Source: Carpediemonas membranifera BICM
Taxonomy: Eukaryota > Protista > Fornicata
Direction: 5' to 3'
Length of the DNA stretch: 64,000 nucleotides
Assembly (NCBI GenBank): GCA_019828565.1
Contig: JAHDYR010000005.1
Coordinates: 521,200 to 585,199 of the forward strand
Shown one piece after another: positions 1 through 59,534 of the stretch (the stretch's first letter is position 1; every line of letters begins with the position of its first letter). The position numbers and the translations under genes are program-made. The notes beneath the pieces were generated by a model that ran no database searches, was not told the origin of the DNA, and was given only the letters and a program-made list of their open reading frames with translations.

Positions 1-1
1 G

Positions 2-679
2 AGCTCACCCATCCACAGGGCTCTTATACGCGCGTGTGCAAGAATGGCCGGCAAATGCGAGCTCACTGTGGGTCGTAAGACTGGAAAGGCATACCCGGTG
101 ACAGTCGAGCAGCTGAAGAGAGCAGCAGCCGCGGCGCGCAAGACCAAGTCACCGGCGCTCACGCAGGCAGTAGCCTTCGGACTGACGTGCTTCTCCACCG
201 TCAGCAGATCAGGGGAGATAATGAGCTTACTCACGACCGACGTTCGGCGGGTGAGAGAGGGCTACGAGATCACTATTCGAAGATCCAAGACCAGGGATGA
301 GCCCATGGTGAAGCTGGTCCCACTACTAGCAGCAGGAGGCTTAAGCCCAGCCAAGTGGCTGAGAGCACACCTCAACGACATTCAGACGGAAGGACCCCTG
401 TGGAGATCCATACAGCACACCGAGAGCCTGCTGAGAGACAACTGCCTTCCACTGACAGCAACAAGGTGGCGCAGATGGGAGATGATCATGGACGTCAACG
501 AGGTCTTCAAGGCAACAGGACACAGCTTCAGACGTGGAGCCGTCGTTCACATGATCGATGAAGGGCGTTCCCCATTGGTTATTCAGGCACTAGGAGGCTG
601 GAAGTCGATCGATTCGGTGAATAGATACTGTGAAGAGGCCATTCGAATCTCACAGCATGCTCTGCAGAGAAGAACATAG
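2..679 (+). CDS. Tyrosine recombinase (YR) of a DIRS-like retrotransposon, 5'-truncated by the window edge
   Basis: The frame is open from base 2. Catalytic set visible: SRSGE (R), RRSKT (K), GHSFRRG (HxxR), LGGWKS (W), VNRY (Y). Clearly related to the YR at 12972-13867. Confidence 0.9.
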   Translation, partial: SSPIHRALIRACARMAGKCELTVGRKTGKAYPVTVEQLKRAAAAARKTKSPALTQAVAFGLTCFSTVSRSGEIMSLLTTDVRRVREGYEITIRRSKTRDEPMVKLVPLLAAGGLSPAKWLRAHLNDIQTEGPLWRSIQHTESLLRDNCLPLTATRWRRWEMIMDVNEVFKATGHSFRRGAVVHMIDEGRSPLVIQALGGWKSIDSVNRYCEEAIRISQHALQRRT

Positions 680-1127
680 AATATAGGACATAAGAGAGCA
701 TTGTAGCGATAAAGGGAGATGAAACGGAACGAGGGGAAAAGAATCAGGCAAGAGTTAGAGAAATGGATGTTTCTCGGATTCGGAACAGGAATTACATATG
801 CCACGTATAACCGGCACAGAAGGTCATAAGTGCAGTAGAGGAAGGCTCAGGGGTACCATCGCAAGGTTAGATGGCGGGATGCATCAATTTGGAATAGTCG
901 ATTATCGTCGACCAAATGGTCGGCATATCATCGATATGTAAGCTATCACGCCTCGGGCGTGGCTCACGCCCTGACACTGCTGGGTCAGGGTGTGTCAGAA
1001 CAGGATTCCGGGGACACGAGAAAGATGGCCAAAATATTTAGAAAATCTCGAAAGATATGATTGTGGATACGGTCTTGATCCGTCCCGATCGCGAGCAGAT
1101 CGTATCCCTCCAGCAGAAACCGTGAGG

Positions 1128-1259
1128 ATGGCCGAAGGCGACACGGATAACGCTGATCCGCCGCCTGTCACCATGGAGAGCCTTGCTGAGCTCATACAAC
1201 AGCAGCAGAACGTCATTACGGCACTCCGTTCGGAGGTTTCATCGGTTAAGGACAGTACA
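1128..1259 (+). CDS. Probable N-terminal fragment of a DIRS-like gag ORF, interrupted by the downstream LINE
   Basis: ATG at 1128 gives MAEGDTDNADPPPVTMESLAELIQQQQNVITALRSEVSSVKDST, an acidic start plus coiled coil. It can be joined in frame to the gag-like ORF resuming at 10691. Confidence 0.5.
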
Positions 1260-3050
1260 CGGGACCCGAGACGCCCGTCTCGTTACGTAGGAGCCGTGCC
1301 CGCGAGCAAGGGTTAGCCCAAGCAGTACACACCCGATGTTTAACCATCCGCCTCGGCCGAGCGAGTGAGTCCACCCGCAAGTACGAGAGACATCCCCAGC
1401 CGCCTGAGCAATGTCCAGCTACCGTCAATTGACAGCATCATGTAGTGATGCGACACACGATCGAGTGGCCAATGAGTCGTCGCTCATCTCGAAGCGGACA
1501 GTTCTAGTGCCGAATAGCCGTCACAGCAGTCAAGCCTTCGCAATGTCAGCCAGGCTTGTGACATAAGCTGTGCCGACAGTCATCTACTAGTGCAAGAAGC
1601 ACTTCATAGTATCCTGAGTCAAGCGTACTCAGCCTAACACCCAACCTGTACCGGAAGGTAGGTTACCCATGTTCAGTCAGCACCGGTGCGCTTTAACGTT
1701 ACATGTACATTTATAACTCGTCGAAACTACGTTCGTAGTTCATCCAATCGGTCTCACCAGGAGGTTAATCCTCGGTGGAGACGGCCAGTGAGCTGTGTCG
1801 AACAACGGAGCATCTTGCATGCTCTGAGTAGGCGCAGAGGCCAGGTAGGTTTTGTATAGCACATGAGTGTCTACAAGCCTTTGAGCTGTCGTTCGACATC
1901 TCTATTTTGCACCGCCTTGGCAGTTAGCCAGTATAGGGGTGTCGCTTACTTACATAGGGATCCCAACAACTTGATATATATCGCGATCCAGACCAGTAGG
2001 TCTGTGGACGGGTGGTAGTGGTCAGCTGAGCGTTGATCCACGGTGCGGTGAGTCTGAGGGAGTGCACGCCCGACGACAACACGGCTGTGTGTGACACCTT
2101 GGGACCGCCATCTAAGGTTCGGGTAATGGATGCTTTGCCGACGGGCTCTGCACACCTGAGCGTCCGGAAAGGCCATGTGGCAAGTACGGTTGTTACGGAG
2201 CATGTTCTGAGTCAGCTAGCGAGCATGTATGCTCTAGCACACGAGTGTCGTTCAACACTCTTCTATTAAGCTATCAGGTCTGAGCCAGGCCGATTAACGG
2301 CGCTCGCTGACAGCGATTAGTCATGATTACACACCAGCGAGTTAGAGCTGAGCCCAGTCGGGTGCTCATCGCTGTGCTGTTGTCTTGAATGGTTGTGAGC
2401 CTAGGCCATCGTTCGATAGGTAAGCCCGACTCATTCATAAGCCTGAATACACGGCAGGCAGTCTATGATAGACTATGATGGAACATGAGCCGCAACGAGT
2501 CAGTGGGCCAGGGTTGAAACCCGCAGTCCGACACGTCATCCCGGAGAACGGTTGTGTTCGGAGCAGTACCGTCGTTTGAATGGTATATGTCCAAATGGTG
2601 GACGGGTTAGACCGGCCCCAAGACCACAGTTGGAGGCGATGGGGTGGCCAAGCTTACGGTTAGAGGCTTGACCGATGAGACCCTGCATCGAGGACCGAGT
2701 TGTCCTATAGATGAGTGTCAGTAATAGAGTAGCCTGCTACCTTAAGCTTTTGCTTAAGTGTGGTTGGATACGTCCCAAGAGACAGTCCCTTTTCAAAGAC
2801 GTACAGCGTCATGCCATACGTGGCTATTATAGAGCCGTCAGAACAAACGCGCCTGACCAGTCTTTCGACAGGTTTGGTCGCTTCGTCTGGACCTTGAGCC
2901 CGACACGAAATGTTGCGCATGCACAGCGCAGTCATCTGTCGCCACAAATCGAACTAGTGTGGCTTTCTCCGGCTTCACCTTTACGTGAGCGCCGGGTGGT
3001 TCTCTTCCCAAACCCCTTTGAGCGCTTCAGACAGCTCAGATTTTACTCAG
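1260..3050 (+). ncRNA. Long hairpin-rich non-coding region, putative structured 5' leader of the LINE
   Basis: No credible long ORF. Many perfect short inverted repeats: 1267-1282, 1435-1451, 1614-1632, 1725-1740, 1808-1824, 1989-2004, 2243-2260, 2460-2474, 2741-2758, 2941-2963, plus a long-range stem 1796-1803/1891-1898. Confidence 0.45.
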
Positions 3051-3402
3051 CAATGACCTTTTTTCTTCCGGTTTCGGGGGTTTTTTAGTCTTCACCAGGT
3101 GGTTTCTCTTTCTGATTCGATCAGTTTCTTCGCCGCCGCAGCAACTTCCCAATCATTGCCTACATGTGTTACGGCCGTCACTTAGACGACCGTGGAGGGC
3201 AGTAACATCTACAACCCAGCCACCACATCAGTTCCTTCATCGCAGCAAGTACATCGGACAGCTTAGAGCCGAACGGTCGGCCGTGCGGTCCACATGTGGT
3301 GTCGGAATATCTTTTTGATATCTCAAAACATTATGACATCGAGCAACGACAGGTTCCGTCACATGTCGCGTCACCAGACGCAACAGCTCACCTTACATAC
3401 TT

Positions 3403-3756
3403 TTGTCAAGGCTCATCTCTATCAAGATGACCCTTGGAGGGGCAGTGTGGTGTGACTCAGGTCACAACAGGTATTATCCTGCACATTTGGTGCAGGATAT
3501 GGCAGTATTCTCTCTAAAGTCTTTATTGGTTCCCTTGTGTCCAGGACTGACCACAGTCCTACGCAAGGAACTACTCCTCATGAACGCTCGTGTGCAGGAG
3601 CTGCAGAGGAACGCCCGCAACGAGGGCTGGTCCAAGCCTCAGTCCTCCTCAATGCGCGAGGAAGCTGATTGGATCGAGCGCATATACCGTATGATGCGCA
3701 AAAAATTTTCCGCACCATGGGCAAAAGTAGTTCTGGCTACAGAGGCCCAATCTTAG
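3403..3756 (+). CDS. Short ORF overlapping the start of the LINE polyprotein (ORF1 remnant or frameshifted N-terminus)
   Basis: 117-aa ORF with a helical or coiled-coil character (LLLMNARVQELQRNARNE), overlapping the next ORF in the -1 frame. Confidence 0.3.
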   Translation: MSRLISIKMTLGGAVWCDSGHNRYYPAHLVQDMAVFSLKSLLVPLCPGLTTVLRKELLLMNARVQELQRNARNEGWSKPQSSSMREEADWIERIYRMMRKKFSAPWAKVVLATEAQS

Positions 3757-6700
3757 CGAAAGACACTGGTCCGCAACCACAAAGTACCACTGCTGCTCAA
3801 AGCAGTATCGCCGACCAACGCTTCCTGACGAGGAAGCACCTCAAATATGTTTCATCCGCCCCTCCTGTCCTCAAAAGACAACTACTAGCAGGCATTGCCT
3901 TTATTGGGGACCCCGTAATCATCCATCCCTTCAAAACTGAGCTTGCAACACACTCATCGACGGGCAATTTCGTCTCGGTGGCAATCCCAAACCTAAAACG
4001 GGACAACGCCCGCTATAAGCGGGCTAAGGATGCCTGTAATGACCTACTCCAAGATGCTGAGCACCTTGCAGCTGCATTTGGGCTCTCCATCCGGGAAGGT
4101 ATCCTCAAACTCTTTCCCCTCATTGCCTATGATCTTGTCCACACGGTTGGAACGCTTAAGGCTGCCCTAATCCACTGCAGGTTCACGGGACTCCCCCCAG
4201 CTAGCAGCATGGACTGGAGCAAGTTCGCAGATTTCATCTCCGCCAGATGCCCTACAGTGTTAGACCAACGGAACGATCCTTGGCCTCCAACCATATCCAC
4301 TGTCCCGAACTCTCCGAGCCTGACATGGCAGGCAGTCGGTCAAAGAGAGCCTCTTGGTCCCCGCATCGCTCACTCCGGCCGGCCCGGCCCCATTGTATCT
4401 CCGGATGGTCTCAACCTCACGCCGTTCATGGGCCTCGAGGTAATCCACTTACTGTATGGCGCCTCTCCCGTGTTGGGAGGACATGCGATGACTGAGCTTT
4501 ATGCCGAATGGGGTGGAGCCACAGCGGCCGACCTTCAGTCTTCCTTATCGAATACCTTATCAGACAGCCTTATCTCTCCCATTCGCCGGAAGGCCTATCC
4601 AGTCGATGACTCTACTATATCCATAAGTTCCTGTTCAAACTCTGATGTTGAGCTCGCAAGCCCGATCCCTGTTAGCGTGGAAGAGGTTGCGCGGCAGGTT
4701 CGGAAAGAAATATCGTCTTGCGAAGAGAACAGCATTTATCCATCATCCCCGATCGTAGCTGAGGAGCCTAACGCCCGTTGGGGCCCTCTCATGAGCATCC
4801 CAGTTCACGCCGACGGCAACTGTGGCCTTCACTCACTTGCTGTCTCTCTGGGTATGACGGGCCTGACGAGACGAGAAGCCGTGTCGAAACTTGCCTCCGC
4901 CATCCAGAATGGTACAGTGGATCTTAACTCCTCGTGGAGATCCACGGTGCGCACTTTAACCACACACACCACCGCTAGCGACATTGGTAGTGCCTTCCTA
5001 TCCACCACAGACCTCCGCAATATTGCATCGCTCTTCGGAAAAAATGTGCTTATTGCTCATCGATATGATGCCAACACAGTCTCAGTAACCATCCCAGCAT
5101 TATCCGAGTTCTCTACACTTCCTCTCAATATTGACGCGCTCAAAACGATGCTCAAAACCGATTACATCCTCATTAGACTGAGTGCTCTGCACTTCACGCC
5201 TCTTTTTCCGTCTGTGAGGAGCGCAGAAGCAAGGCGCCTGCAATATGCTGAATATCGTCCAAGAAGAGCCCCCTCTAGTGTGGCTCGCAACAACATCGCC
5301 GCTGGAGGCCTCGATAGCGCCCCCTCTAGTGTGGCTCGCAACAACATCGCCGCTGAAGGCCTCGATAGCGCCCCCTCTAGTGTGGCTCGCAACAACATCG
5401 CCGCTGGAGGCCTCGATAGCGCCCCCTCTAGTGTGGCCCGCAACAACCGTGATGGCGTCCATGGCGCTCTCATAGGCTTGTCTGGCAAGAGAGAGGGTCC
5501 TGTTTCTCATATCCTAGTGGTCGACTTTGAAGGACTAGGAACTGCCGTAGACCGCAGAGCCACCAAACAGAGTCGCGTCTCATATCCCGTAGAGGCCGGC
5601 GCCACACTCCTAGCCCGCGTCAAGGATCCTGAAACGGGGATAATGATGTGGGACGTCGCAGGGGTCCACTGGGGCGGCTTAGAAGTTGATATCCCAGCGC
5701 AGTTAATGCAGACAGCTTTATACCAAGCGGCAGTTGTTCATGGGTGTCCTCCCATGAGCTTCAGAGTACACCCCGACCACCCCGGGATCTCATTCCCCAG
5801 CCCGACCGACTGGCTTCACCACCTCACGGTCATAGTGAGCTCCCTCCCGAACTGCATCATGGTCGCCAAAGACCCGAGACTTGAGAACTCCGTCCTAGAG
5901 TCATGGGTCTCGGAAAGCGATGCCCCCTTCCTTGACAAGGTCTATGACATAAGTGATCTAGAGTCCATAGACAAAAGATCCTTTGGGCATATCCATGACT
6001 ACTGCCGTTCACCCGAGTTCTCTGAGGCGATGTCGATAGCCCAATGTCTCACAATGGTGAAGTGCCCCTGCCCGTACCACATTGGAACAGATCCAGGCTA
6101 CCATTGTGCTCTCAGTGACACTGTAGCTTTCGCGGCGGTACTGCACACAGTCTCATGTCTCGACCGAACATCTAGGGGAGCTATCACATCCACGTACTCT
6201 GAAATCACTGATGCATGGAGGAAAGACTTGGATGTCCTCATCGGCAACTGGTCCTCTCTCCTGCCCGACCTGGCCGTGCTACTACTCCAAGACCTCCACC
6301 TGCCAACGCTTGAGGAGCTGCACCACATCCTCAAGGAGTACGTAATAGCACCTAAGGGTGGCTGCTCCTTCCCCACAGGTGATAGGGCCAGACAGGCTAT
6401 GACGCGCCGTCAATTTATTGCAGTGCGGAGCCCAGCTCGGCGAGGGTGGGAATGGTTTGATCCTCTTGCCAAGATGATAGCGGTGGCGGATGCGGCAGGC
6501 ATAGTCCCTCCAAACAGCCTAGAACAGCCATTCATCAGGATAGCGACGGTGAATAACGACAGCTCCTTCAGCAATCAGTTGACGGCTCAGCAAGTTTACT
6601 GGGAGTGCCCTCCTCACCGAGACCTACCGCAATCTGCTGCAGAGCTTCTGGCTCTCAACGTTCCTCCCTCGGCAGACAACTCCAAAGGAGTAGTCAAGAG

Positions 6701-9700
6701 GTCCTACAGAGCGCCGGATCATTGGTTTCTAGTCCCGAGAATCCCCAACAAGCCAGTGCGAGGGCTCCGCAAAGTCAGACTGAGAGGGCCCATGACTCGA
6801 GGAGACATGGATGCCCTCATACAGAAGGCAGAAACAGCATGGGTCAGCGAAGCGTGGGACCTTTCTCCGGTGTTCAAAGCTCTCCAGAGTGCCCGAGCTC
6901 ACGACGGTAACTGGAGTGAGGTTGAGCCACCGGCTTCTTCCACGCCAGCTCCAAGCTTAGCCACGCGAGTCTCGCCTGCGACCTTCAGGAATCAGAGAGG
7001 GCGAAGTCAAGCAGGTAGACGACCAGTAAATGGTCACCTCTACTCGTGGAATTGCACATCACTCAACATCACCAAGATGACTCTTGCTCTAGTACAAGAC
7101 GTGGACATCATGGCCATTCAGGAGCTATGGTGGTGGGCCCAGTCCCCGGAGCTGCCCACAACGAATGACAAGGTCCTGCTATACCACGGAGTGATCAAGT
7201 CAGAGTCCGAGACAAAGCATCTAGGCGTAGGCATCATGCTGAGGAAGGAATTAGCTGAGCTCTGCACATACGTCGAGAACCAACCCCACTCTCCAAGGTT
7301 GATTCAAGCTGACCTAGGCTGCGTGTTTGTAACAGCTGGCAAACTGAAGGTCCGTGTCATGTCCATCTATAGTCCATGCACGGGAGCACAAGCCAAGAAA
7401 GAGTTCCACACTCTACTGTCCTCCGAGGTGAAGAAAGCTATTGAGCAAGGGCTCCAAGTTCTTGTCATGGGAGACTTCAACACGAACCTACTAGATCCAT
7501 CGACGCTGTGGGCTACCACCCTAAAGGAGTGTGGCTTGAGACTGGTAGTGCCCGACGGCCCGACCTTCATGGACAGAGTAATTGATGGCATCGCAGCAAC
7601 ACCTAAGCTGGCTGATCTCATCGAGAAGCCGCTCACAGTATCCCTTGAACCCAAAGGACACAGAGCGGTTGTAGCAAGATCAGGCATAACGGGTTACTTT
7701 CGCACGAGGAGCAAGGCAACAGCAGTCCTCAACGAAAGACATGTGGCTAACGTACTTGAATGCAGCAAGGATCATCGAAAGGCGAGGACTCTCCTGAGGA
7801 ACATCAGCCACCTTGATGTCGACCAAGCCTTTCAAAGCCTGACGTCGACTATCAACCGATGGGCGTTGGTGGACACTGCGGCCTCACATGAAGTGAGAGA
7901 AGTCGAGAGAGCAGAAGACTACGACCACTGGTTTGTCGCCGGAGAGCAGATCGGTATTTCCCCTGAACGGCTCTATGAGCTCATCATTGAGGATCATCGC
8001 CACCAACATCAGCTCAAGGAGAGGACGAGCAGAGGCCCCAAAGCTCTCGTGTGCTCTGAGCTATCATCAGCAATGCTATCAGTAGCGTTAGCATCCTCGG
8101 AGAGCCACGCCCACTCAACACTCAAAGCCTACCATGCCCGAGCCAAGCGAGTCTCTGAGAGCATGGATGTCATGTCCCCTGAATTCTTTAGATACGTCCA
8201 TTGGAAGCTTTTGAAGGGGCAGGCCAGAGTGTCTGGTCTTCGCAGAGACCTGGAAGGCTTACTCAGAGGACCCGGCCTTCCTGCTACCACCACAGTAGGA
8301 GGCAGAGTGATCACCAACCGAGAAGAAGTAGCCAAGGCCTTCGAGGAGTGGTATGCGTCAGTATCATATGTGGCAGGAGCAGTAGAACCATCCATCTCTC
8401 GCCCCGATATAGAGCTCGAAATCACGGACACTCTCCTGGAAGGGGCTCTCAAATCTGCCAAGAATAGATCAGCCCCAGGCAGTGATGGACTAACCCCGGC
8501 AATTTTCAAATATAGCCCAGTCCTCAAGGAGGCGCTCAAGACTCTGCTACAGAAGTGCATTGACCAACTCAAGACCCCAGCAGAGTGGCATACCGCCGTG
8601 GTAATTCCATTGAAAAAGCCCGGCTCTACTAGCGATGCTCCTGTGGCGTTCAGACCTATCTCCCTACTTTCCACAGCCCACAAGGTGCTCGGCACAATGA
8701 TGATCCGCACGATTGACCGAGACAACCCTCTTCCCCCTGAACAATACGGTGCAAGGCCGGGTGTTTCATCGGTTGATGCACTATGGGCTATTGAGCACGC
8801 GAGACGTGGGTTCAAAGCGACCCACATTGGGACTCTGGACGTGGCTAAGGCCTTTGACCGTGTCCCGAGGAGAGATGCATTGGACTCGTTGAGGGGGGAA
8901 CAGAAGGGCCATTGAGATGTTGAAGGAGATGCATTTGCACACAAGGATCTCTATGCGAGGTAGCAGCACTAGCGCCGCTACCAACACAGGAGTACGGCAA
9001 GGATGCACCACTGCTCCCTTCATCTTCACAAGATACCTTGCGGAAGTCCCTCACATCATTGCAAGCTTAACCGCTCTAGGGAAGGAAGCAATTGAGAAGC
9101 TTCCTCCCGACATAGAGACCCTGAGACGAGTGGCAGCAAGGCCGTGCGTTCCCTGGATTGTCACAGTCCTGTTCGTTGATGACATTACAATAGTAGCTCC
9201 CTCCCTTAAGTGGTTGGAGGCAGCACTTACGGCGGCATGGACATGCATGCTAGCGCTATCCTTGGAGCCCAACGATAAGACCACCTATGTCTCAGAGGAC
9301 GACACCCCCTCCCTCACCATCCATGGCAATCCAGTCATTAAGAGAGACGCGGTCAAGCTCCTAGGGGTCCTCTTCGATACGTCCCGAGACTTCTCCACCC
9401 AGAATAGGACTATGGGCGAAAGGATAGACAGAGAGCTACGACTACTGAGAGCTAGCGGCGTGATGCACTCCAAGTTCTGTCCTCGCATTGTAGAGGTCTA
9501 CACCCTCCCCAAGCTGCTGTACGGGTGGAGCGTCTGGGCTAATCATAAGGCTGTCTCCCAGGTAGGCAAGCTTGCATCGGCAGCCCTAAGGATCAGCCCA
9601 ACTGCATCGGAGGCGAAGTACCTGGAGCTAGGCTGGCTGCATCCAGAGGCAATGCTCCTGCTGGACAGATTCAAGCAAGGGGGTGAGATGGGCGAGAATC

Positions 9701-10315
9701 CATCCGGGCAAGGATCTCCCAGACTGCATTGCTGAGGCACAAGGCAGCCTTGGCCTGTCCCACTCCGACAGCCTTGACCTAGCAGCCTGTCGAGCAGCCC
9801 AGCTCTCTCACGACATAATCTGCCGTGGTAACAAAGTGGCTGTCAGGAGATACGTCACGGAGTCGGCACTCACCCGCCCTTTTACCCGCTCTAACTACCC
9901 GGCCAGGCAGCCATACCTCGACCATCTAACGGCTGGGCCAGCGAAGCGCCTCGCGATGCTACGGCTATCGTGTCTACCAATGCCAACGAGAGGGGCTCTT
10001 CCTGACGCGTGGCAGCCGGTCAGGGGAATCCTACAGGACCTGAAGGATGAACCGGAAGCCGCCGCAGCTCTTGAGGCATGTCCTCTCTGTCAGGGTGAGG
10101 CCATCGCCGCGGCTGTGATTGAGATCCTGACGTCCCCTACCAAGACCTTAGCAGTGCTGAGATCCAGGACGTGGGTTGTCCTGAACCAGACCCACTTGGC
10201 TAAGTGCGACCACTTCAAGATTAACCCCATCCTCCTTTTCAAGGACCCCCTGACCCTGAGCAGGCGTGACGACGCCAAGCTCACACATATGTTGAGTGTA
10301 CTTTGTGACGCGTGA
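3717..10315 (+). CDS. LINE polyprotein: OTU protease, DEDDh (MAEL/arenavirus-NP-like) exonuclease, APE endonuclease, reverse transcriptase, Zn knuckle; two frameshifts in G homopolymers
   Basis: OTU: VHADGNCGLHSL...LHFTPL (~4791-5205). Exonuclease: VVDFEG, YPVEAG, VHGCP, CPYH, HCALSD (~5508-6150). APE: SWNC, AIQE, GVGI, SIYSP, MGDFN, PTF..RVID, GHRAV (~7035-7670). RT: SAPGSDG, FRPISLL, QYGARPG, LDVAKAFD, GVRQG, LFVDD, LLGV. C-terminal CPLC...HLAKC. The frame breaks at G6 (8893-8898) and G5 (9679-9683). Confidence 0.88.
5268..5447 (+). repeat. In-frame 51-bp tandem repeat, 3.5 copies (APSSVARNNIAAGGLDS)
   Basis: Units start at 5268, 5319 and 5370, with a partial copy at 5421; near-identical. 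Lies between the OTU and exonuclease domains. Confidence 0.95.
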
Positions 10316-10690
10316 CTGGTAGGTTCCCTCGCTTACATAGGAAAACGCCACCGTCCTCCCCGGTCTCAGGACCTCCTCGATCATCGTCCTGAGGGAGCCC
10401 CATCGGGCTCGGAGCACAGAGTCCCGCAGCGCCAAGAGCTGGAAGTTGTGAGCTGGCCGACCCGCGTGGGTCATCTTTTTACCCTTCTTCGAAGGGGTTT
10501 TAGGCCCTCCTCTCCCTGCAGCTTCAGAACAGTACTCTTGGGCGCCGCAGCTCTGGCTTCCAATGTTATGAGAACCGTTGCCCTCCTGCGGCTGATCACC
10601 GCTCGTCTGGCTCGGGTTGTGGCCAGTGCCTGGAGGTGGACACCCCGGCACTGTATCAAAAAATAAACTCAAAAACTCAAAAACTCAAAA
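10316..10690 (+). other. LINE 3' UTR with stem-loops and an A-rich (CTCAAAAA)n tail
   Basis: Stems CTCAGGAC/GTCCTGAG, GAGCCC/GGGCTC, CCCTTC/GAAGGG and terminal CAGTGCC/GGCACTG, followed by TCAAAAAATAAACTCAAAAACTCAAAAACTCAAAA. Confidence 0.75.
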
Positions 10691-11000
10691 CCGTATGATG
10701 CGCTACGAGGAGCCGATCGACATCGACGTCATCTTGCTCGAGCTCTACGCACGCCACCGATCTCTCGACATCAAGGACCGTTACGGCTACCAGGCAGCCG
10801 CAGCTGTGAGCATCGCTTCAAAGGCTTTCATCGCCACCCCGCCGAGAGACGCCCAACACGCCGATGTTGCCACGCGCCAACTGGAGCTCGAGCAGCGCAT
10901 TCTTCACACGCTGGCAAAATTTCCCCGTCTGGCCCAGGCTCAGCAAGAGCGCTCCGCCTTCAAGGCGGGCAAGCCCGGACCGAAAAGAAGCCGCCAGTAA
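10691..11000 (+). CDS. C-terminal part of the DIRS-like gag ORF
   Basis: Helical ORF (RMMRYEEPIDIDVILLELYARH...AFKAGKPGPKRSRQ) beginning immediately after the LINE tail and directly upstream of RT. Confidence 0.55.
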
Positions 11001-12960
11001 CAAGCCATCTTCAAGATCTCTCACCACCTCTCACACTCGCACATCCCTCCTCAACGTCTCTCTCCTCCTCCGAGACTCCTCACATTTCCCACGATAGCCC
11101 GTCATCAGCTCTGGTCCGCCTCGGGAGCGCCCTCAGACGTGGTCTCGTGGATCGAGGCAGGCGTCCCGATCGAGATCACCGGGTCGCCACGTCAGCCCAA
11201 GCCCCGACCCCTATCGCCCGCGGCCTCCGAGTGCCTCCGACCACACATGCAGGAGCTCGTCAAGTCCCAAGTCGTGCGCATCTGCAGTCGCAGGCCTCGT
11301 CTAGTCTCCCCCATATTCACTACTCCAAAGTCCGACGGCTCCCCGCGACTGATACACGATCTCAGAACGTTGAACGACGTCACGAAGGAGCGGCGGTGTT
11401 CCGCCTTTTCGGCCTCAAGCGCCTCTTGGAGATCGTAGCCCCGGACGACAGCGCAGTGAAGCAAGACCTACGCTCAGGCTACTACCAACTCGGCGTGAAG
11501 CCATCGGACAGAACGCTTCTCGGCTTTGCCTACGCCAGTTCTACCAGTTCCAGGTGCTTCCCTTCGGCTGGACAGCAGCGCCTTATGTGTTTCAGCGCGT
11601 CATGATATCCGCCGCGTCCATCATATCCCACCGCTTCGGGGTGAAGGTAGCTGTATATCTGGACGACTGGGCCGTCCTAGCACCGCAGAGCCACCTCAAG
11701 CGTGTAGTCCCCGGTATCGTCAAGTGCATGCAGCAGCTAGGCCTCATCCTCAACCTGGCCAAGTCAATGCTGACTCCTGGCAGGGTGATAGAGTACCTAG
11801 GCTTCAGGGTCGACCTGTCCGCGAGACGCATCACTATCACGCAGGCGAAAGCCACCAAGTACGCGGCGAAACTGGACGAAGCTCTACTCGTGCCACCATC
11901 AGGGCGGGAGTGGCAGTCCCTCCTAGGCAAGCTCTCGTTCGCGTCTATCGCATGGCAGGACGGCAGGGCATGGCTTCGACCCCTTCAGGTCTCCGCAGCC
12001 CCCAACACTCCCCAAGCAGAACGAGCTCTGCAAGAGTGGGCCAGACGAGTGAGAAACGTGCCTCATCGGTCGTTCGACAGCCTTATGACCCTGTGGGGCA
12101 TGCATCCGGCGATAGATGTCACCGTTATATCAGACGCGTCGGACGAGGGGATGGGAGCTGTCATCCGGCAGCCGGGTGCCCCCGATATACAGCTGTCCCT
12201 TCCCGTGCCACCCTCACTAGCACACTCGCATATCACCGCCAAGGAGTTCCTGGCCTCGGTGACCGCTGTGCGCCTTCTGCTCGAGTCCTCGGGCTTAGAC
12301 CTGCAGGGCAGGGAGATAACGGTGTTCTCCGACTCGACGGCGGCAGTTGGTTGGCTCAACAAGCAGGCCTCCACTCGCGCGCCACCAGAGGTGGTCTCCG
12401 AGTCGCTGTCCTTCTTCACGCTCCTATCGGAGAGAGGCGTCAGCTTGAGGGCTCGACACACCGCAGGCCACCTGAATATAGCCGCCGACTCGCTGTCAAG
12501 GTTCACCAAGACGGACTGGCAAACCCCGGCGGGCGTGCTCCGCCGCATGTTAGACTCGTGGGGGCCGGCCGAGGTCGACTTGACTGGTCACCCCACGAAG
12601 GAGCTGCTCCTCCCGTCGTACACCAGCCGCTCCGTGCCGTTCACCGGAGACGGTCTGAACCAGAACTGGTGCGGTCGGAGAGTCTTCCTTGCGCCCCCCT
12701 GGGCCATGGTCCCAAAGGTGCTAGCCAAGCTTTACCGTATCATAGAGCCTCTAGGAGACCGAGACCCTCGACAACTACGCTCCGTAACGTTTCTGGTCTT
12801 GCCGGACATCAGGTCCGCTCCTATACTCGCCTTAAAAAGGCTGGCGCCCGAGAAGATGTACTTCTCAATCCCAGCACAGCCAGGGTCAGAGCTGCCAGGC
12901 GCCAATGGAAAGCACAGACTAGTCGCCCTGTGCCTTCCGACGCGATTGTCACAGGCCTAA
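11001..12960 (+). CDS. DIRS-type pol: reverse transcriptase, RNase H and Dam-methyltransferase-like domain (frameshifts near 11388 and 11533)
   Basis: RT: SWIEAGV, SPIF..PKSDGSPRLIHDLR, DLRSGYYQ, LPFGW, YLDDW, EYLGF. RNase H: ISDAS, ITAKE, FSDS, AGHLNIAADSLSR. MT-like: EVDL...DGLNQNW...FLAPPW. Confidence 0.88.
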
Positions 12961-12971
12961 GCGAGCATGCG

Positions 12972-13867
12972 ATGTTCGGTGGCCTCGCTCGGGCCACACG
13001 GCAAGACTACGCGAGGACCCTTGCGGGCTTCCTGGCCTACGCGTCCACACTCCCCCCGGTCGAGGCAGCCAAGCGCTGTGCTGACGAACAGGCCCACACC
13101 GCTGGAAAGGACCGCATCATGGCCAAGACCGGGGTGATAGTCAGGTTTGCCCACGTAAGGGCACGTGCTTCCAGACACCTACGCCCTCGCCGAGGACTTC
13201 TGGCCAATCGTAGCAGAAGCAGCTACGGCCTCGACGACAGCAGCACACGGCCCCGCGGCACCTGTCAGGCTCAAGTGGATCAATGCAGTCCTCACCCGGA
13301 CACCCGAGGACCTCATGTGCTACCAGTGGCGGCAGATAATGACATTCGCGCTGACGTGTTATGCCTCCGTGTCGCGCCCTGGTGAGGTCCTGGCCCTATC
13401 ACGCAGGGACATCATCGAGACCCCCGACGGCATCGTCATCACCATCCGGCGGACTAAGACCGGCATGACCAACGTCCGAAAGATGATTCCTCTCGCGCAG
13501 GGCGACCCCTGTCGCCAGCGACCTGGCTACATGACCACCTGGCCGCCATAGGGGACGTTGATGTACTTGAGCCTATCTGGCGGACGACGGACCAGTACGG
13601 CAACCTCGCTCCCGGTCACCGCCCGGTGGCATTCTCCGAGCTGGCGGACAGCTTCAAAAGCCAGTTCGGACATGGCGCAAGGCTCCACGGCCTTCGTCGA
13701 GTGCAGCAGCGGACATGATCTTGGCGGGCGTCCCAGTAGTCGTAGTGATGGCAAAGGGAACATGGAAGGATTCTAACTCACTATTGAGGTATATTGAGGA
13801 CACTATTCGGTTAGATAGAGTAACATCAAGGGTTTGCTTCACGCATCCCTCTGTTCGTGAGCTGTGA
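12972..13867 (+). pseudogene. Tyrosine recombinase of the DIRS-like element, frameshifted in this assembly
   Basis: Fragments in successive frames: GLARATRQDY, FALTCYASVSRPGE, TIRRTKTG, LHGLRR, KGTWKDSNSLLRY; stop at 13865-13867. Confidence 0.8.
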
Positions 13868-15647
13868 GAGGCTGAACAGATCTAAATGAGAGAGAAACAT
13901 GCGAATCCGCGCGAGGATTATGTTATAGGAGATAATGAGTAGCAAGGTAACTAGCTAGGGCTCCACATCGCCACCATATGGGTCATCGGCAGTTGTGGTG
14001 ACATAAACTGCACCCCAGAGAAAGGGGGCAGAGTGTGGTTGGACGACCGGGACAGGCCCCATGGAGTGGTCAGACAGGTAAGTGTATCACTGTCTGCCTT
14101 CAGACTGGTAGGTGAGCGGAGCGCCACGCCCAGGCTTCGGCTGAGCGGTCGAGGTTAATCTGATCGAATTGATTCCGATCAAATCGTCGCAGTTCAGGAA
14201 AGAGAGCAAAGAAAGGCAAGCATGAACCGCGACGCAGCCGGTGGGCTGCTATCCTCCCGAACGGGAGTGACTCCGGGGTCCCGGCCAACACGGCCGAGGT
14301 AAGCGGGCCCTGGTGAGAGGAGTTTACTACTTACACTAGAACACACAATCGATAATAAACTCTTCTCCCCCCTGTGGGATATAGACGTAGTCTACCGGAC
14401 CGTCTGCCCAGTCAGACGTACCGTCGTAGACGTAGACACAGTGCGCCTTGGGGCGCGGTCCACAAGGGTCCGAGTGGGGTGCCGATCACCCGGACCCAAA
14501 CCCAAAAGATTCGGGAGAATCTTCTAGATTCGGGGAAAATATTCGGCTGGTGACCTGGGACGTTTAAGCCAATTTAACCAAGGGGGGAAAACCTCCCCTG
14601 TTCGGCACATCCCTGGAAATGGCTGACGACGAGCAAGACGCTCAGCCTGATCCAGGAGTATAAATTTGATCTAATCAATTGGAGACTTCGACTGTAGTCG
14701 ACTAACAGTCGTGTGACCGTTGGGTACTCCCCTCGTACATCCGTGGCCCGGTACCTCAGACCCGAATTCAGACTCGAAATTCGGCTGCCAGGTACCTCCT
14801 GGCGCTCGCGAGCAAACGGTGGCCGGCTTCTCTTCGACCATTTCTTTCGAAGATGTGAAAATCAATTCATCAACTGATTACTGTCCAACCTCTAACCACA
14901 TCCAACCAGAGCCCTTACTGACCGGGCGTTCGGTGCCCACCACCGAGGGGCCGCAGACCTACGTAGAGGGCGAGTCCTGAAGTAAGATCCAAAAAATATG
15001 ACCGTTATGCTGTAACGATGAAATAAGGTTGTGACTAGTGCACAGTTGGAACCGTAGGCCCTTTTCACAAGGCATGCCGACCCTAGCTTGGTTTAGCAGC
15101 ATCACTGCCGATTCACCGCACTTTAGTCTGCGTTCAAAATCTTGTCAGCAACGGATAGCGATAGGTACATCCGTTTTAGCAGGACAAGCGAAACCGCGCC
15201 CGATGATTTTGGAATCTATTTTGCCTCTGACCACAACCCAACCGGAGTGCGGAACAAAGTGGTCGTTACTTTCTATCATCAGCATTTTTTGCCCTACACG
15301 TAAGTACGATACCAGTCCGATCTTCATTTAATGGTACGGTCAATGCGTCAAATTATGAGTGGGCTGAGCTAATCAATCAAGGAGACTGGGTCAGATGCAC
15401 GACCCCGGTAAACGCATATTGTCCCATTTCATGTTGCCGAGTGCCATTGGTACGAGTTGAAGCCTGTAGAGATTTATCAGCCAAGCACCTGCCCCATAGC
15501 CTCAAATCTCTGCTGCGCCGGTTGGCGGAGAATGGATGGCGATAGATCAGTTGGCACAAGATACAACAATCACAGGTGAACGCGACATCCGTCGCCTGAC
15601 AGATAAATAATCCGCATTTATACAGGGCCACATAAACGTGCGGCCAC

Positions 15648-18600
15648 TCAGATTGTCGAGGCGAGCGCGTCGAAACACTGGCGCAGGGCATCGGCCGTAA
15701 CGTCAGGCAGCCTCGAGCTGTCCCCCAGCAGGATGTAGTAGGGGAAGGGGTACATGTCGAGCACCGGGGTCCTCTGGATCGCCCCGTTGGCGAAGGTGAT
15801 CCGGATCCGATCGACAAGGTCTCCCTTGTTGAGCGCGATCAGCAGCGGCAACACGCCCTTGCTGATGAGCCCGCGGACCTTGCTGGCGACAGCGGCCTCG
15901 TCCTGAAGGATTGAGCCGTCCGATATGATAAGCAGCACCTGTCGGGGCCCGGCGCTGTCGAAGATGGACGACGCCGCGTCGAGCATGCCAGCGAAGTCAG
16001 TTGTCTTGTCCTCGAACTTGACGCGGTCGAGGATGCCCGGAAGATGGGCATCGGGCAGCAGCTGCTCGAGGGGGTGGTAGACCTCAGCGCCCTCGCCAAA
16101 GCCCACAACGCACACGGGTCCCGTCTCAAGGGCGTTGAGCGCGCTGGTTAGAAGCACAAGCGCCTCCTTGGCGAGGTCAGCCGATGCCTGCATGGATCTA
16201 GATGTGTCGACAGCGATCACCACGCTGTAGTCGCGCTTGGCGGGTTTGGTGCGGCGCAGCCAAATGTTGTTCTGGACGTACTGCGAGGCTACGAACTGCA
16301 CAAGCCTGCGCATGGAGAGGCGCTTCCCCGTCCTGAAGTTGCCGACGAGCTGCGACCGTTCCGTCGGCTCCAGCACAGTTGACAGCTGCTCCGTGAGGCG
16401 GTGGATACCGGGCTGCACGCGGTTCCGGATCGCCGCATAGCCCGCTGCGTCGACGCCGTCGTGAATCGAGACCTCGGTCGGGACGTGCTGTAGGGCGGCG
16501 CCGTCGGCCCGGGTCAGCTGGACAGCGCCGACCTTGATGTTGAAGGCCTGTGTCCGCTCAGCTTGGGCGATCGTTGGGGCCTCGGCCTCGGGGTCGGGCT
16601 GCTCCTGGTCGGCCCTGTCGTGCTCCCGGTTGATCTCATGCTGGCCGCGTCTTGCCTCGGCGACGGCCTCCTCGCCGGTGTCAGATTGGGCCGCGTCGCC
16701 GTCCATCTCGACGTCCTGGTCCTCCTGGTCATCGGGCTCGGCGTCCAGGAGGTTGACCTGCTGTACCTCCCGCTCGACCTCCCCGTCGTCGCCCTGGCCG
16801 CCGTCCTCTTCGTCCGAGCCCTTGCCCGTGTCGGCGTGCTGCGTGTCCTGGCCGTACGCCTCGTCCTGGTCGTCGTCCGAGGCGTTGTGATCCGCATCAC
16901 CCTCCCCGGCAACCTCGTCAGCTTCCATCTCCTCGTCGACGTCGGACTCGGGCTCGGGCTCGGGCGGGGCGACCTCCTGCTCGGCCTGCTCCATATCCTC
17001 ATCATCGTCGTCGAGATCAGAGACGTCGTCGAGCTCGAGGCGCTCCCGGCCGTTCTCGTCGTCGTCTTCGGTGTCAACCTCGGGGGCGTCATCGTCAAGG
17101 CCGTCGTCACTCTCGTCAGCGGCCTCGTCGGGCTCAGGCTCGTCGTCAGCATGCTCGGCCTGGTCGAAGTCGATATCCTCCTCCTCCTCTGACTCCCCGA
17201 TCAGGTCGGCCTCGCCGTCGAGCTCCCGGTCGCTGCCGGAGGCGTCACCGTCGTCCAGATCATCCTCGGCCCACTCGCGCTGCTCCTCCTGCTCGCCGCC
17301 GGACATGTCATCGTCCATCCGCTCGTCAATGTCCTCCTGCTCCTCCTCATCGTCATTCTCGTCCTCCTCGTTCTCATCGACCTCAACGTCCTGCTCCTTG
17401 CCGTCGATGTCACGTTCCATCTCGACACCGCCGTCGCTGACATCACCGTCGTCCTGCTCCTTATCGTCCTGGACCTGGTCGAGCTCGTCTTCGTGCTCGA
17501 TCTCGTCGCTGATGTCCTTTCCGGTGCCCTTACCGTCGGCCAGGCCAGCCCCCTCGCCGGCCTCCTCCTCCTCCTCCTCGCCGTCGTCCTCGAGCTCCTC
17601 CTCCGGGATGTGTTCGAGGACGTCCTCGTGCACCATGGACACCAGCATCGCCGCCATCGTCAGGGCCAGCGAGAGGGTCGGCCCGAGTGTGTCAGCCGGG
17701 ACGGGGGCCTCTGCGTCGCTGGGCTGGCGGTGCTGGGGTTCCGTTTCCGCGAGCAGACGGGTGATGGGGCCTGCGATGAGGGCGGGGAGCGCGTCCACGG
17801 TGCCCCTGTCGATAGCGTCACGGGCAACGTCCGTCCGGACCGCCGCGACCTGCTCGAGTCGGAGCCGAGCCAGGCGGGCGGGGTCAGGGGTGGGCGAGGG
17901 CGGGGGTGCCACGCGGGCCATAAGGGCGGGCAGTGAGACGAGGAGCCCGTTGACGGCCTGCAGGACGTGGAGCATCGGCGTATCAGTGCCCTCGCTGATC
18001 CTACCGGCCATGAACACGTCGTCCCACGGGCTGAACACCAGCAGCAGCGTGTACTGCAGCCGCTGCAGCAGGGCGCGGTGGGCGGGCGCGTCGCAGGCGA
18101 GCAGTTCGGCCAGCCCAGTGTAGATCTTGCCGACGTCCTCGGGCTCCCGCGTGTTGAAGGGCACGCGGGGCAGGCCCGTAGCCCGCACGGCCCCGCGGAG
18201 GGCCTTGACCAGGCGGGCCCGGACAGAGACGTCCTCTTTGTGCGTCCGAACGGCCTCCCAGCGGTCTGCGAGGTCCACAGCGACGGGAGATAGGTCTCCC
18301 ACGATGGCTGCGAGGCCTTCGCGGTCGAACGTCATGGTCCTCCCGTCGACATCGCCGAGGAACATGTCGATCGGCTCGCTGGTTGAGCCCCGGATCGAGG
18401 CGACGGCCGAGGCGATGTCTCTGCGAGTCTTGGCTTGACTCTGCTTGATGGCCTGAGCCTTGACTTCTCCCCGGTCTCTCGTGAGGTCGTACTTGCTGAG
18501 CTCGAGAGCATCCTCGAGCAGGCGGGTACCGGGGCCCTTGAGCTCGGCGTAGTGGCGTCTGAACGGCTCCTCGAAGACCATGTGTGCCCTGTAGAGCCCC

Positions 18601-34481: not shown

Positions 34482-36815
34482 TTAATCAATCATGTACTGC
34501 AACACGCTCATGTCATCGTCACTGCGCTTGATGTACTCGTGATCAATGAGGTGCTCGAGACGGCCCTTCACCGCCTCGATGTCGACAGGGTTGAACCCGC
34601 CGTCAGCCACCATCCGCTGCACGCTGTCCACGACGGCGTCCATGGGGAGCCCGGCCGTCTCCTTCTTGAGCAGCTTGATCACAAACACATCGATGCGGGT
34701 GTCCCGGAAAGAGTCGTCTGTTGCCCGCCGCTGCTGCCGGCCGGCCGCCGGCTTGGGCTCAGGTGTAACATCCGCCTCGGTGATGAGGTTGACGGGGCCG
34801 CCTGTGTACCCGTCATTCAGGGCAAGATTGGCCCCACGCCGCATGACGACACCCGCATCGATCAGAGGCGCCACTGCTGCCATAAACTGCACTTCAGTCA
34901 CGCCGACAGCGGCGATGGCCTCCTTGAGCCCAATCGCGGGGACTGGCCCGAGCAACATGAGGATGAGGCCCGCGAGCAGGGGGCAGCGGACGGTCGTCTC
35001 GGCCCCGCCCAGGGTGAGGGCGAGATCGACAGTGCTCTCCTCGGCGCTGAACTCGAGCTTGTGGGTCGGGTGCCCGGCCGTGTGGATCGCCTCGAACGTC
35101 TTGTGGGCGGCCAGGAGGTCGTCCGGCAGCGTCGGCGCCAGGGCGTCGGGCAGGCCCCAGTGAGTCTGGTTCACGGCCACCATAGTCACGACGTCCTTGA
35201 GGTGGGGCGGCAGGGCGTCTCTCAGTGGCTGGGCGAGCACCTCGGCGTCGTCGACGTCCTCCTGCATGGCCTCGAGACGCTCGGTGTACGACTCGCCGCA
35301 CTCCTGTTTGAGTGAGGAGATCACGAGCGCCTCGATGTCCCCGTTGGACCTCTCGCCCCCCAGCAGCCGGCGTCTCATCGCGGAGCCGAACTCCTTCTCG
35401 AACATGTCCTTGTCCTCCAGGCGCCGGAAGATGGCGATCACAAGCCGCACGTGCGTCTGTATGTCTACACCGGGGTTGATCGCGGCCTTCGGGTTCGAAG
35501 CTGTCAGCAGGTGATCGAGGTGGGTTGCGACAGCACCGAGCACGATGTCCTGGTGCCGGAGAACCGCCTCACCCACCGCACCGCGGAGCCGGGAGAGCAC
35601 AGCGCTGTTGCCGCCGAAGCACCTGCTGGCGATGTGGGCCGCCTGGTGCAGGGCGGCGGTCGTCCTGAGCACGAGCTCGTCGGCGGCCAGACTCGCGGCG
35701 GCGATGGCGCTGACCCGGTCAACGGTGATGTTGAACAGCGTCTGCAGCAGGGCGGCGTTGCTGACGCCCATGAGGCGGCCGAGGGCGGTCATGGGGGGCT
35801 CCATGGCAGCGTCACCCTCGAACAGGGCGTCGACCATTGCCCGGAACGACGGCGCCTCGAGCAGCTCGGCCGTGCGGCGGGTTATGAGGACGTCGAGGAC
35901 GACAGCCCTGATGTCTGCGGTGATCCGGGGCGACCCGATGATCTCGTCCACGAGACCGGACTCGAAGTCGAGCACCCGCACCGCCTCGAGGTAGAAGGCC
36001 GCGCCAGGGTGGGCAGCGACCATGGCCTCGAGGGCAGCGGTGTAGTACTCTGCCGTATGGGCGGCGAGGGTTGCCTCGAGCTGGGAGTCGAGGAAGCCGA
36101 GGGCCGTAGCCATGTCGAAGATGAGCTGTAGCTGCTGGACTAGGTCCGCCTGGCCAGCCCCACCCTTGCGGGCCTCGGAGAGGAGGGGCAGGACCGACCC
36201 TACAAGGACGGAGAAGGAGGCCCGGGGCATGACGGCGTCGCGGAATGCGGCGATGCACAAGGCCAGGACAGTGGGACCGGGCATCATGTCAAGGTGGGCG
36301 AACACGGCGCACACGGTCTTCGTCAGCCGCTTGTACCGCGCCCACATGGCGGCGAGGTTGCGGACGGTAGCGGCGGGGGTTGTGGGGGTGTGGGCTGAGG
36401 CGACGTCACGGGCATGTTGTACCATGCAGGCAGAGAGATCGTCGCATAGTCTGGAGTGGAACCCGCAGCGGCATATGTGGACGACAGTATCGTAGAGCAT
36501 GGCGCAGGGCTGCTTGGTGATGGACGACAGGTCCGTCTGTGTGGCGGTCAGTATGGCCTTCAGATTGGCCCAGGACTCGGAGTAATAGTCCACAGATGGC
36601 ATAGGCGGAAGAATATCATTGACTGAAGGGTCAAAAGCAACCAGGAGGCCCTGGTTTTGGGACAAATTGAAAGAGCCGATCTCCGTCTGGAAGAGGACGG
36701 AGGGAGAGGACTGCATCTTGCGCTTCGTGACATACCCGGAATCAAGAAGGTTGGATTGCTTTCGTACTTTGCCCTTTGTCGCTTTTTGCATTAAACGCTT
36801 GAGCCCTTTTGCCAT
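34482..36815 (-). CDS. Cullin (divergent, CUL3/4-like)
   Basis: LEDKDMFEKEF...RRLL, LKQECGESYTERLEAMQED, and a C-terminal neddylation/winged-helix domain (IDVFVIKLLKK...LEHLIDHEYIKR). Confidence 0.88.
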   Translation of the reverse strand: MAKGLKRLMQKATKGKVRKQSNLLDSGYVTKRKMQSSPSVLFQTEIGSFNLSQNQGLLVAFDPSVNDILPPMPSVDYYSESWANLKAILTATQTDLSSITKQPCAMLYDTVVHICRCGFHSRLCDDLSACMVQHARDVASAHTPTTPAATVRNLAAMWARYKRLTKTVCAVFAHLDMMPGPTVLALCIAAFRDAVMPRASFSVLVGSVLPLLSEARKGGAGQADLVQQLQLIFDMATALGFLDSQLEATLAAHTAEYYTAALEAMVAAHPGAAFYLEAVRVLDFESGLVDEIIGSPRITADIRAVVLDVLITRRTAELLEAPSFRAMVDALFEGDAAMEPPMTALGRLMGVSNAALLQTLFNITVDRVSAIAAASLAADELVLRTTAALHQAAHIASRCFGGNSAVLSRLRGAVGEAVLRHQDIVLGAVATHLDHLLTASNPKAAINPGVDIQTHVRLVIAIFRRLEDKDMFEKEFGSAMRRRLLGGERSNGDIEALVISSLKQECGESYTERLEAMQEDVDDAEVLAQPLRDALPPHLKDVVTMVAVNQTHWGLPDALAPTLPDDLLAAHKTFEAIHTAGHPTHKLEFSAEESTVDLALTLGGAETTVRCPLLAGLILMLLGPVPAIGLKEAIAAVGVTEVQFMAAVAPLIDAGVVMRRGANLALNDGYTGGPVNLITEADVTPEPKPAAGRQQRRATDDSFRDTRIDVFVIKLLKKETAGLPMDAVVDSVQRMVADGGFNPVDIEAVKGRLEHLIDHEYIKRSDDDMSVLQYMID

Positions 36816-36950
36816 TATCGCTTAAGCTGCGAAAATGGACAGCGACCAACGTCACCTGGCTGTACCACCGTCAACCTGTCCATCACACCTCACGCTCAGA
36901 TTTTGACATGTGCAAAACCCGCCCGACAAAACCTTGTGTCAACCGAGCCA

Positions 36951-59398: not shown

Positions 59399-59534
59399 GA
59401 AGCAATGGGGATTTGTCGACACGACTGTAATACATGATGGGCATGGATACCATAAATCAGCTGTCTGGGAAGAGAGAAAGGGTGATAACTATAGGGTGTC
59501 CCTGAGTGGGGATAAACAGACGGATAGCCGCCAC

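Follow-up and report, generated by a model that had tools for sequence, protein, structure and literature searches.

A LINE of Carpediemonas membranifera with a Predicted Maelstrom-Type DEDDh Nuclease and an OTU-Like Domain Upstream of Its Endonuclease and Reverse Transcriptase

Introduction

What use would a retrotransposon have for a second nuclease, next to the endonuclease and the reverse transcriptase (RT) that it encodes? This question is raised by a locus of the protist Carpediemonas membranifera BICM (contig JAHDYR010000005.1, positions 521,200 to 585,199 of the forward strand; the whole stretch of 64,000 nt was analyzed and is called the window). The locus harbors an APE-type non-LTR retrotransposon (long interspersed nuclear element, LINE), with the APE endonuclease upstream of RT, a short-repeat tail and no long terminal repeats (LTRs). 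A preliminary description of the window had proposed that an OTU protease and an exonuclease of the type found in Maelstrom and in the arenavirus nucleoprotein (NP) precede APE and RT in a single open reading frame (ORF), and that the two domains act together against host defense. We analyzed the nuclease by motif conservation, relatives and predicted structure, and discuss which role it may have.

Conserved motifs of the nuclease domain

When 1.84 billion representatives were searched exhaustively, three proteins with the nuclease were found at E ≤ 0.001, and a profile search added a fourth protein (4 of 7997 candidates scored). Together with the window this gave five carriers (window and P0001–P0004). 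The motifs DFE (5523–5531), YPVE (5583–5594), VHG (5736–5744), C-x2-H (6069–6080) and HCALSD (6102–6119), all named in the preliminary description, were confirmed in the window sequence. D-x-E (ExoI), D-x3-E, C-P-x-H and H-C-A-L-x-D, which comprises the ExoIII motif H-x4-D, were invariant in 5/5 carriers, and D-x-E and H-x4-D stayed invariant at identities of 25–52%. At ExoII, D719 and E723 (residues of the window ORF are counted from the Met at 3717) were both present in all five; E723 was assigned by spacing (DEED), which makes Glu, in place of Asp, the likely ExoII residue. Of the predicted zinc ligands, C-x2-H and the last Cys were found in 5/5 carriers, and so was the strand-2 Glu by a motif written afterwards. 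The proposed signature DxE..PxE..HG..CxxH..HCALxD was kept in its catalytic and zinc residues, but the His of VHG was present in only two of the five carriers.

The spacing was as in Bombyx Maelstrom, with E626 on predicted strand 2, C785 and H788, C797, and D801 four residues further on. Bombyx Maelstrom has the zinc set E137/C290/H293/C302 and R306 at the last catalytic position (PMC4408791). We also considered that the motifs had arisen by chance. This was rejected, since among 2000 shuffled versions of the ORF none contained the nuclease pattern and only 3 the OTU pattern; both patterns were written after the sequence had been seen.

Relatives of the element and selection on the nuclease

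All five carriers found are APE-type LINEs. They show two layouts, with the nuclease either in ORF1 of a two-ORF LINE or in the N-terminal part of a single polyprotein. P0001 (KAG9391364.1) is a further protein of C. membranifera with nuclease, linker and APE on one chain; no RT was seen in it. It has 43% identity to the window ORF over 796 columns, and the BLASTP alignment spans window residues 547–1329 only. P0002–P0004 were located on the DNA sequences L001–L003 (3 of 169 pattern matches), where the nuclease and a coiled coil are encoded in an ORF1 of 1200 aa, located 430–580 nt upstream of a separate APE-RT ORF2. A host Maelstrom gene that merely adjoins the LINE was rejected as an explanation, because nuclease and APE share one reading frame in two sources.

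The ratio of nonsynonymous to synonymous substitution rates (dN/dS) was determined for two pairs, L002/L003 and L002/L001, the latter with dS close to saturation. For the nuclease it was 0.15 and 0.11, respectively, very similar to APE (0.14 and 0.12) and RT (0.09 and 0.11), while the remainder of ORF1 showed values of 0.24–0.44. Since all five carriers are LINEs and dN/dS is low, we conclude that the nuclease is an inherited LINE module under purifying selection in the relatives and not a one-off acquisition.

Conserved regions of about 250–270 aa are located before and after the nuclease in ORF1 of L001–L003 (dN/dS 0.24–0.39, no family match). Apart from the nuclease, neither the window ORF nor window 680–3716 gave a detectable match to ORF1. 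Stand-alone relatives of the nuclease were found neither among 6130 candidates of 134–433 aa nor among 40 viral and 114 prokaryotic stretches or in phage records. These searches were insensitive, as a word-index search with the single nuclease domain (0 of 1516 candidates) missed P0002–P0004, although these fall in that length range.

The spacers between ORF1 and ORF2 (L001 5000–5430, L002 7460–7930, L003 3900–4475) are conserved, with 77% identity over 164 nt between L001 and L003, and possibly contain an internal promoter or a translation signal. In the 3' untranslated regions (UTRs) of 800 nt, L001 (9195–9538) and L002 (11545–11894) have a block with 77% identity over 355 nt, followed by the TTC tails. 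This block is a candidate for a structure recognized by RT. A tRNA was not found in L001–L003.

Predicted structure of the nuclease

A model of the nuclease was built from an alignment of the five homologues and compared to known structures with Foldseek (PDB) and with VIA-align (48,161 chains, best 50 rows). The model had a mean pLDDT of 58 and a pTM of 0.65, with low-confidence stretches at residues 62–102, 188–196 and 225–240; a model from the single sequence reached a pLDDT of only 33.6. In VIA-align, Maelstrom was found at ranks 1, 2 and 7 of the 48,161 chains (9nhc_F with Z 9.8, root-mean-square deviation (rmsd) 3.9 and 166 aligned residues; 4ybg_A with Z 9.3, rmsd 4.2 and 167 aligned residues; 5af0_A with Z 8.4), and the top rows were all DnaQ-like. 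Among the best 50 rows, NP-C of LCMV (4o6h; Z 7.6, 127 aligned residues) had the lowest rmsd (3.5) and Lassa NP (3r3l; Z 7.3) the highest identity (21%). Foldseek gave 38 matches at E ≤ 0.001. Drosophila Maelstrom (4ybg) was matched with an E-value of 3.4e-4 and had the highest query TM-score among the rows listed (0.44).

The DEDD/RNase-H-like fold that had been predicted for this domain was recovered in these model-based searches as a DnaQ/RNase T fold, and on this basis the domain is almost certainly a DEDDh nuclease. It probably belongs to the zinc-binding subtype of Maelstrom and NP. The preliminary description had put both on an equal footing; Maelstrom ranked first by structure, within 1 Z of a DinG exonuclease, and NP scored about 2 Z lower. 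By sequence, the nuclease had only chance matches in the PDB and no meaningful match in NCBIfam, PHROGs or Pfam. In the Atlas embedding, the clusters nearest to window 5490–6299 (0.92–0.93) consist of unnamed proteins of 240–252 aa, mostly from Bacteroidota and Methanobacteriota, which may represent relatives of this type of nuclease in prokaryotes.

Possible role of the nuclease

We propose counter-silencing as the main job of the nuclease, with a probability of about 0.4. The domain would be catalytically active as a 3'-5' RNA exonuclease of Maelstrom type, likely carried in the RNA-protein particle of the LINE, and would degrade the double-stranded or small RNA by which host silencing is triggered. 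This proposal is based on Maelstrom and arenavirus NP as nearest folds, on an active amoeba protein with both the DEDD and the ECHC residues, and on the position in ORF1. LINE RNA is coated by abundant ORF1 protein, and a nuclease in ORF1 therefore parallels arenavirus NP, which is nucleocapsid and exonuclease in one protein. The amoeba protein was reported to be an active exoribonuclease (PMC4408791), and the exonuclease on the arenavirus nucleocapsid protein suppresses host immune signaling (PMC7968707). More tentatively, a protist LINE lineage may have converted a Maelstrom-type nuclease into a silencing suppressor on its ORF1 coat, and one branch may have added the OTU domain and fused everything to a polyprotein. 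If this is true, the element encodes an enzymatic silencing suppressor of a LINE and represents a third home of the Maelstrom/NP fold, on a mobile element; the combination of nucleocapsid and exonuclease would be the same design as in arenaviruses, and Maelstrom would descend from an ancestral enzyme of this kind to become a transposon-silencing factor.

Several observations weigh against counter-silencing or against the domain assignments on which it is built. The model is of moderate quality, with pLDDT below 50 at residues 62–102 and 188–196, which include C785. MAFFT with four settings aligned the strand-2 Glu in only two of the five carriers; the window and P0001 have it in another column than P0002–P0004. 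In VIA-align, the DinG exonuclease of S. aureus had rank 3 (Z 9.2), tied within 1 Z of the top, and ERI1 (Z 8.7) and RNase T (Z 8.6) came next. RNase T also had the best Foldseek E-value (2.7e-5), and arenavirus NP was not among the listed Foldseek rows. The Pfam families of Maelstrom and arenavirus proteins were unmatched at E ≤ 10 by all five members; for this reason our label is Maelstrom-type, and no Maelstrom orthologue is meant. The five carriers represent three sources only, as L001–L003 are 70–80% identical in DNA. The OTU motif is absent from ORF1 of these three two-ORF relatives, so OTU and nuclease are not an obligate pair. The domain calls of the preliminary description hold, but its two-part counter-defense module is weaker. 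Host DEDDh nucleases (TREX1, PML) restrict L1 and do not help it (PMC10123124), and rotifer retroelements with DEDDy nucleases showed no clear relation to copy number (PMC5408684).

Some of these data would also fit a generic exonuclease like DnaQ, DinG or ERI1, perhaps with DNA as its substrate (flaps, cDNA ends), and with the likeness to Maelstrom as an effect of a weak model. Besides the tie with DinG, the RNase T match and the missing Maelstrom HMM match, this is favored by the nearest named Atlas clusters, which are RNase_T, Rv2179c-like and RNase_H_2 at 0.90. However, C-P-x-H and H-C-A-L-x-D are invariant in 5/5 carriers with Maelstrom spacing, and three Maelstrom entries lie within the top seven of VIA-align, so we consider a generic exonuclease improbable. 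A housekeeping function, in which the nuclease shortens the 3' end of the element's own transcript as far as the repeat tail, ready for priming, or removes the RNA after first-strand synthesis, would be compatible with the same fold and conservation data. The DEDDy ORFs of rotifers were proposed to act in 3'-end processing (PMC5408684). Furthermore, short repeat tails terminate the elements of the window, L001 and L002 (TTC repeats in the latter two), and the nuclease forms a fusion with APE in P0001 and with APE-RT in the window. In L001–L003, on the other hand, it is encoded in ORF1, apart from RT. To our knowledge such a nuclease is missing from most LINEs that have repeat tails, so that the step would not be obligatory. 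We regard this function as rather unlikely, but as the main rival of counter-silencing.

The nuclease may also act in restraint, by limiting the copy number of its own element or by degrading RNA or cDNA of competing elements. The suppression of L1 by host DEDDh nucleases (PMC10123124) and the native action of Maelstrom in silencing (PMC2628886, PMC4408791) point in this direction, and potential competitors are close by, with DIRS-like neighbors in the window and LTR and polymerase-B elements beside L001 and L002. Since self-limiting elements are expected to be outcompeted (PMC5408684), such restraint appears distinctly improbable. The least probable alternative is a non-catalytic RNA-binding module that serves as the RNA-binding domain of ORF1. 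It would resemble animal Maelstrom, which is inactive and binds single-stranded RNA (PMC4408791), and would agree with the presence of the domain in ORF1 of three relatives and with the likely Glu in place of Asp at ExoII. But D-x-E and H-x4-D, which animal Maelstrom has lost, are invariant in 5/5 carriers despite their low identity, and DEED variants are known from other retroelement and viral nucleases (PMC7968707, PMC5408684).

OTU-like domain

The region upstream of the nuclease probably has an OTU fold, as suggested by its motif and its embedding neighbors. DGNC and the His are present where the preliminary description had placed them (Table 1). The third triad residue of OTU proteases is usually Asp or Asn; in the window, the position two after the His is Thr. 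The Atlas neighbors of the region are clusters with PF02338 on 19–35% of their members (score 0.93, 191 of 256 features in common). While motif and embedding thus spoke for the OTU call, sequence searches did not add to it, with no Pfam match at E ≤ 10 and no sequence match in the PDB.

An OTU protease would strip ubiquitin from proteins of the element, or would cut the polyprotein to release an ORF1-like part. Human L1 ORF1p is directed to the ubiquitin-proteasome system by a host factor (PMC10123124), which makes an OTU domain plausibly useful to a LINE.

Comparison with known systems

Active nucleases with DEDD and ECHC residues are known from host genes of protists and from arenaviruses (PMC4408791, PMC7968707). 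The domain shares with protist Maelstrom (Entamoeba EHI_192630) and with animal Maelstrom (9nhc_F, 4ybg, 5af0) the DEDDh fold, for which the animal structures gave the top match, and with the protist protein also the joint presence of catalytic and E-C-H-C-type residues at similar spacing. In contrast to Maelstrom, which is a host gene, it is borne by a transposon, has only 10–14% identity, lacks a Pfam match and likely has Glu at ExoII. An HMG box was not found in the window ORF by Pfam. With the C-terminal exonuclease of arenavirus NP, it shares the fold, one zinc site (predicted for the LINE domain) and, in the ORF1 layout, the location on an RNA-coating protein. The NP rows are viral and were found at ranks 20 and 23 only. 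The alignment is confined to the exonuclease part (NP residues 375–544), and the LINE nuclease is without the NP core.

Retroelement-borne 3'-5' exonucleases with DEED were described for the DEDDy ORFs of the bdelloid Juno/Vesta LTR and Athena/Terminon elements, and Vesta2 and Vesta5 were reported to have a Cys-His-Cys motif (PMC5408684). According to the same source those are RNase D-like DEDDy enzymes, encoded by a separate ORF3 in LTR or Penelope-like elements, whereas the window has a DEDDh domain of Maelstrom type in a LINE. Fusions of cysteine proteases of the ubiquitin system to transposon proteins are also known, namely OTU in Ginger1 and Helitrons (PMC2836005) and an N-terminal Ulp1 in the NeSL and Utopia non-LTR elements (PMC4640811). 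The latter combine Ulp1 with a restriction-like endonuclease, unlike the OTU-like domain with APE in the window, and the passages on transposon-borne proteases in these two sources contain no OTU in an APE LINE. Compared to other APE-type LINEs, the window element has the usual order of APE and RT, a repeat tail and no terminal repeats, but differs by its long ORF with about 1100 aa before APE, including the OTU-like and nuclease domains. A Maelstrom-type or DEDDh domain in a LINE did not turn up in our full-text literature searches, which covered mostly papers accessible without subscription and did not extend to Repbase and Dfam. In PMC8516963, a search by term through the text and ten supplements did not find retrotransposons, Argonaute, Piwi or Dicer.

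An inherited LINE module under selection, present in two layouts, offers a small enzyme for testing whether LINEs defend themselves enzymatically against silencing. A LINE-borne nuclease is also relevant to the relationship between Maelstrom and the arenavirus exonuclease. Even as a mere RNA trimmer, it would be an accessory LINE activity of which we found no report.

Organization of the element

Table 1. Features of the LINE and their coordinates in the window
Feature	Position	Strand	Basis and details
Main ORF, first Met to stop	3717..8915	+	Frame +3, 1732 aa; N-terminus of unknown kind, OTU-like domain, repeat, nuclease, linker, APE, half of RT
OTU-like cysteine protease domain (putative)	4790..5205	+	D366-G-N-C369 (4812–4823), H492 (5190; LHFT 5187–5198)
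51-nt tandem repeat	5268..5447	+	Repeat scan; in frame, 3.5 copies, 97% identical; 17-aa linker
Maelstrom-type DEDDh nuclease (predicted)	5490..6170	+	Catalytic D603, E605, D719/E723, H796, D801; predicted zinc ligands E626, C785, H788, C797
Linker region of unknown fold	6171..7019	+	38–42% identity to P0001
APE-type endonuclease	7035..7670	+	Pfam PF03372, E 4.6e-7; motifs SWN, IQE, GDFN, IDG, GH
Non-LTR RT, split over frames +3 and +1	8430..9390	+	PF00078, E 9.7e-8 and 1.5e-8 per half; FVDD 9172–9183
G6 run, first frame change (+3 to +1)	8893..8898	+	Run scan, codon model
G5 run, second frame change (+1 to +2)	9679..9683	+	Run scan, codon model
C-terminal region	9684..10315	+	Frame +2; EACPLC (10073–10090) common to ORF2 of L001/L002
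Likely 3' UTR	10316..10690	+	AATAAA 10662–10667; A-rich 8-nt repeat tail (3.2 copies, 10665–10690)

The features of the element are listed in Table 1. Contrary to the preliminary description, positions 3717–10315 are not one reading frame. The open part of frame +3 spans 3669–8915 (1748 aa from stop to stop) and ends within RT; RT resumes in frame +1 (8893–9735), and the C-terminus is in frame +2 (9632–10315). The proposed order of APE and RT behind the nuclease was correct for APE and the first half of RT, but the second half of RT is not in frame with them. A codon model trained on 3717–8891 switched from frame 3 to 1 and then to 2 at both frame changes. Among 11 runs of G or C in 3601–10400, only two were G runs of at least 5 nt, one in each frame overlap. 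Relatives read the same RT region in a single frame, and programmed frameshifting was rejected for this reason. Based on the switch of the codon signal, the G runs at the overlaps and the single frame of the relatives, the LINE was likely once a single ORF of about 2200 codons. The two frame changes may be assembly errors or decay.

The last APE motif usually has an Asp before the His. In the window (7656–7667), P0001 and L001–L003 the His is kept and the preceding Asp is absent. In a PDB search, the window RT half matched L1 ORF2p as the nearest solved RT (E about 1e-7) and R2 with an E-value of 0.23, and no other kinds of RT. The C-terminal region has only half of a CCHC motif, as the later His and Cys of the CCHC in ORF2 of L001/L002 are not retained. 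Pfam and PHROG searches with the linker gave no match. P0001 likewise has a short repeat directly before its nuclease, as read by eye. By analogy to LINE anatomy, AATAAA and the A-rich 8-nt repeat likely mark the 3' end of the LINE. No long direct or inverted repeats and no LTRs were found in window 1–16000 except for the internal 51-mer, no second copy of the LINE was found within the window, and Rfam had no match in the window or in L001–L003.

Genomic context

The LINE is located between DIRS-like pieces, a tyrosine recombinase at 2–679 and RT/RNase H at 11374–12960. The pieces in 10690–13800 (gag-like, RT/RNase H, recombinase) are likewise broken over several frames. The LINE is flanked by two short ORFs (975–1316 and 10596–11000), possibly the two parts of a DIRS gag that was interrupted. 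The 2.3 kb upstream of the LINE ORF (1316–3669) contain no ORF longer than 140 aa and are pyrimidine-rich near 2950–3130; Rfam had no match in this region, and it showed no match to ORF1 of the relatives (680–3716 compared). L001 and L002 also have mobile elements next to the LINE: L002 739–2202 and 1–909 and L001 9806–10660 contain a protein-primed type B polymerase (PF03175) and LTR fragments, the latter RT-like and integrase-like with a chromodomain.

The window is intron-poor: from 15.6 kb on, uninterrupted long ORFs encode a midasin-like AAA protein, topoisomerase II, cullins, an adaptin and a cyclin. Two cullin genes (34485–36821 and 56909–59488) share the window with the OTU-bearing LINE, which is likely a coincidence.

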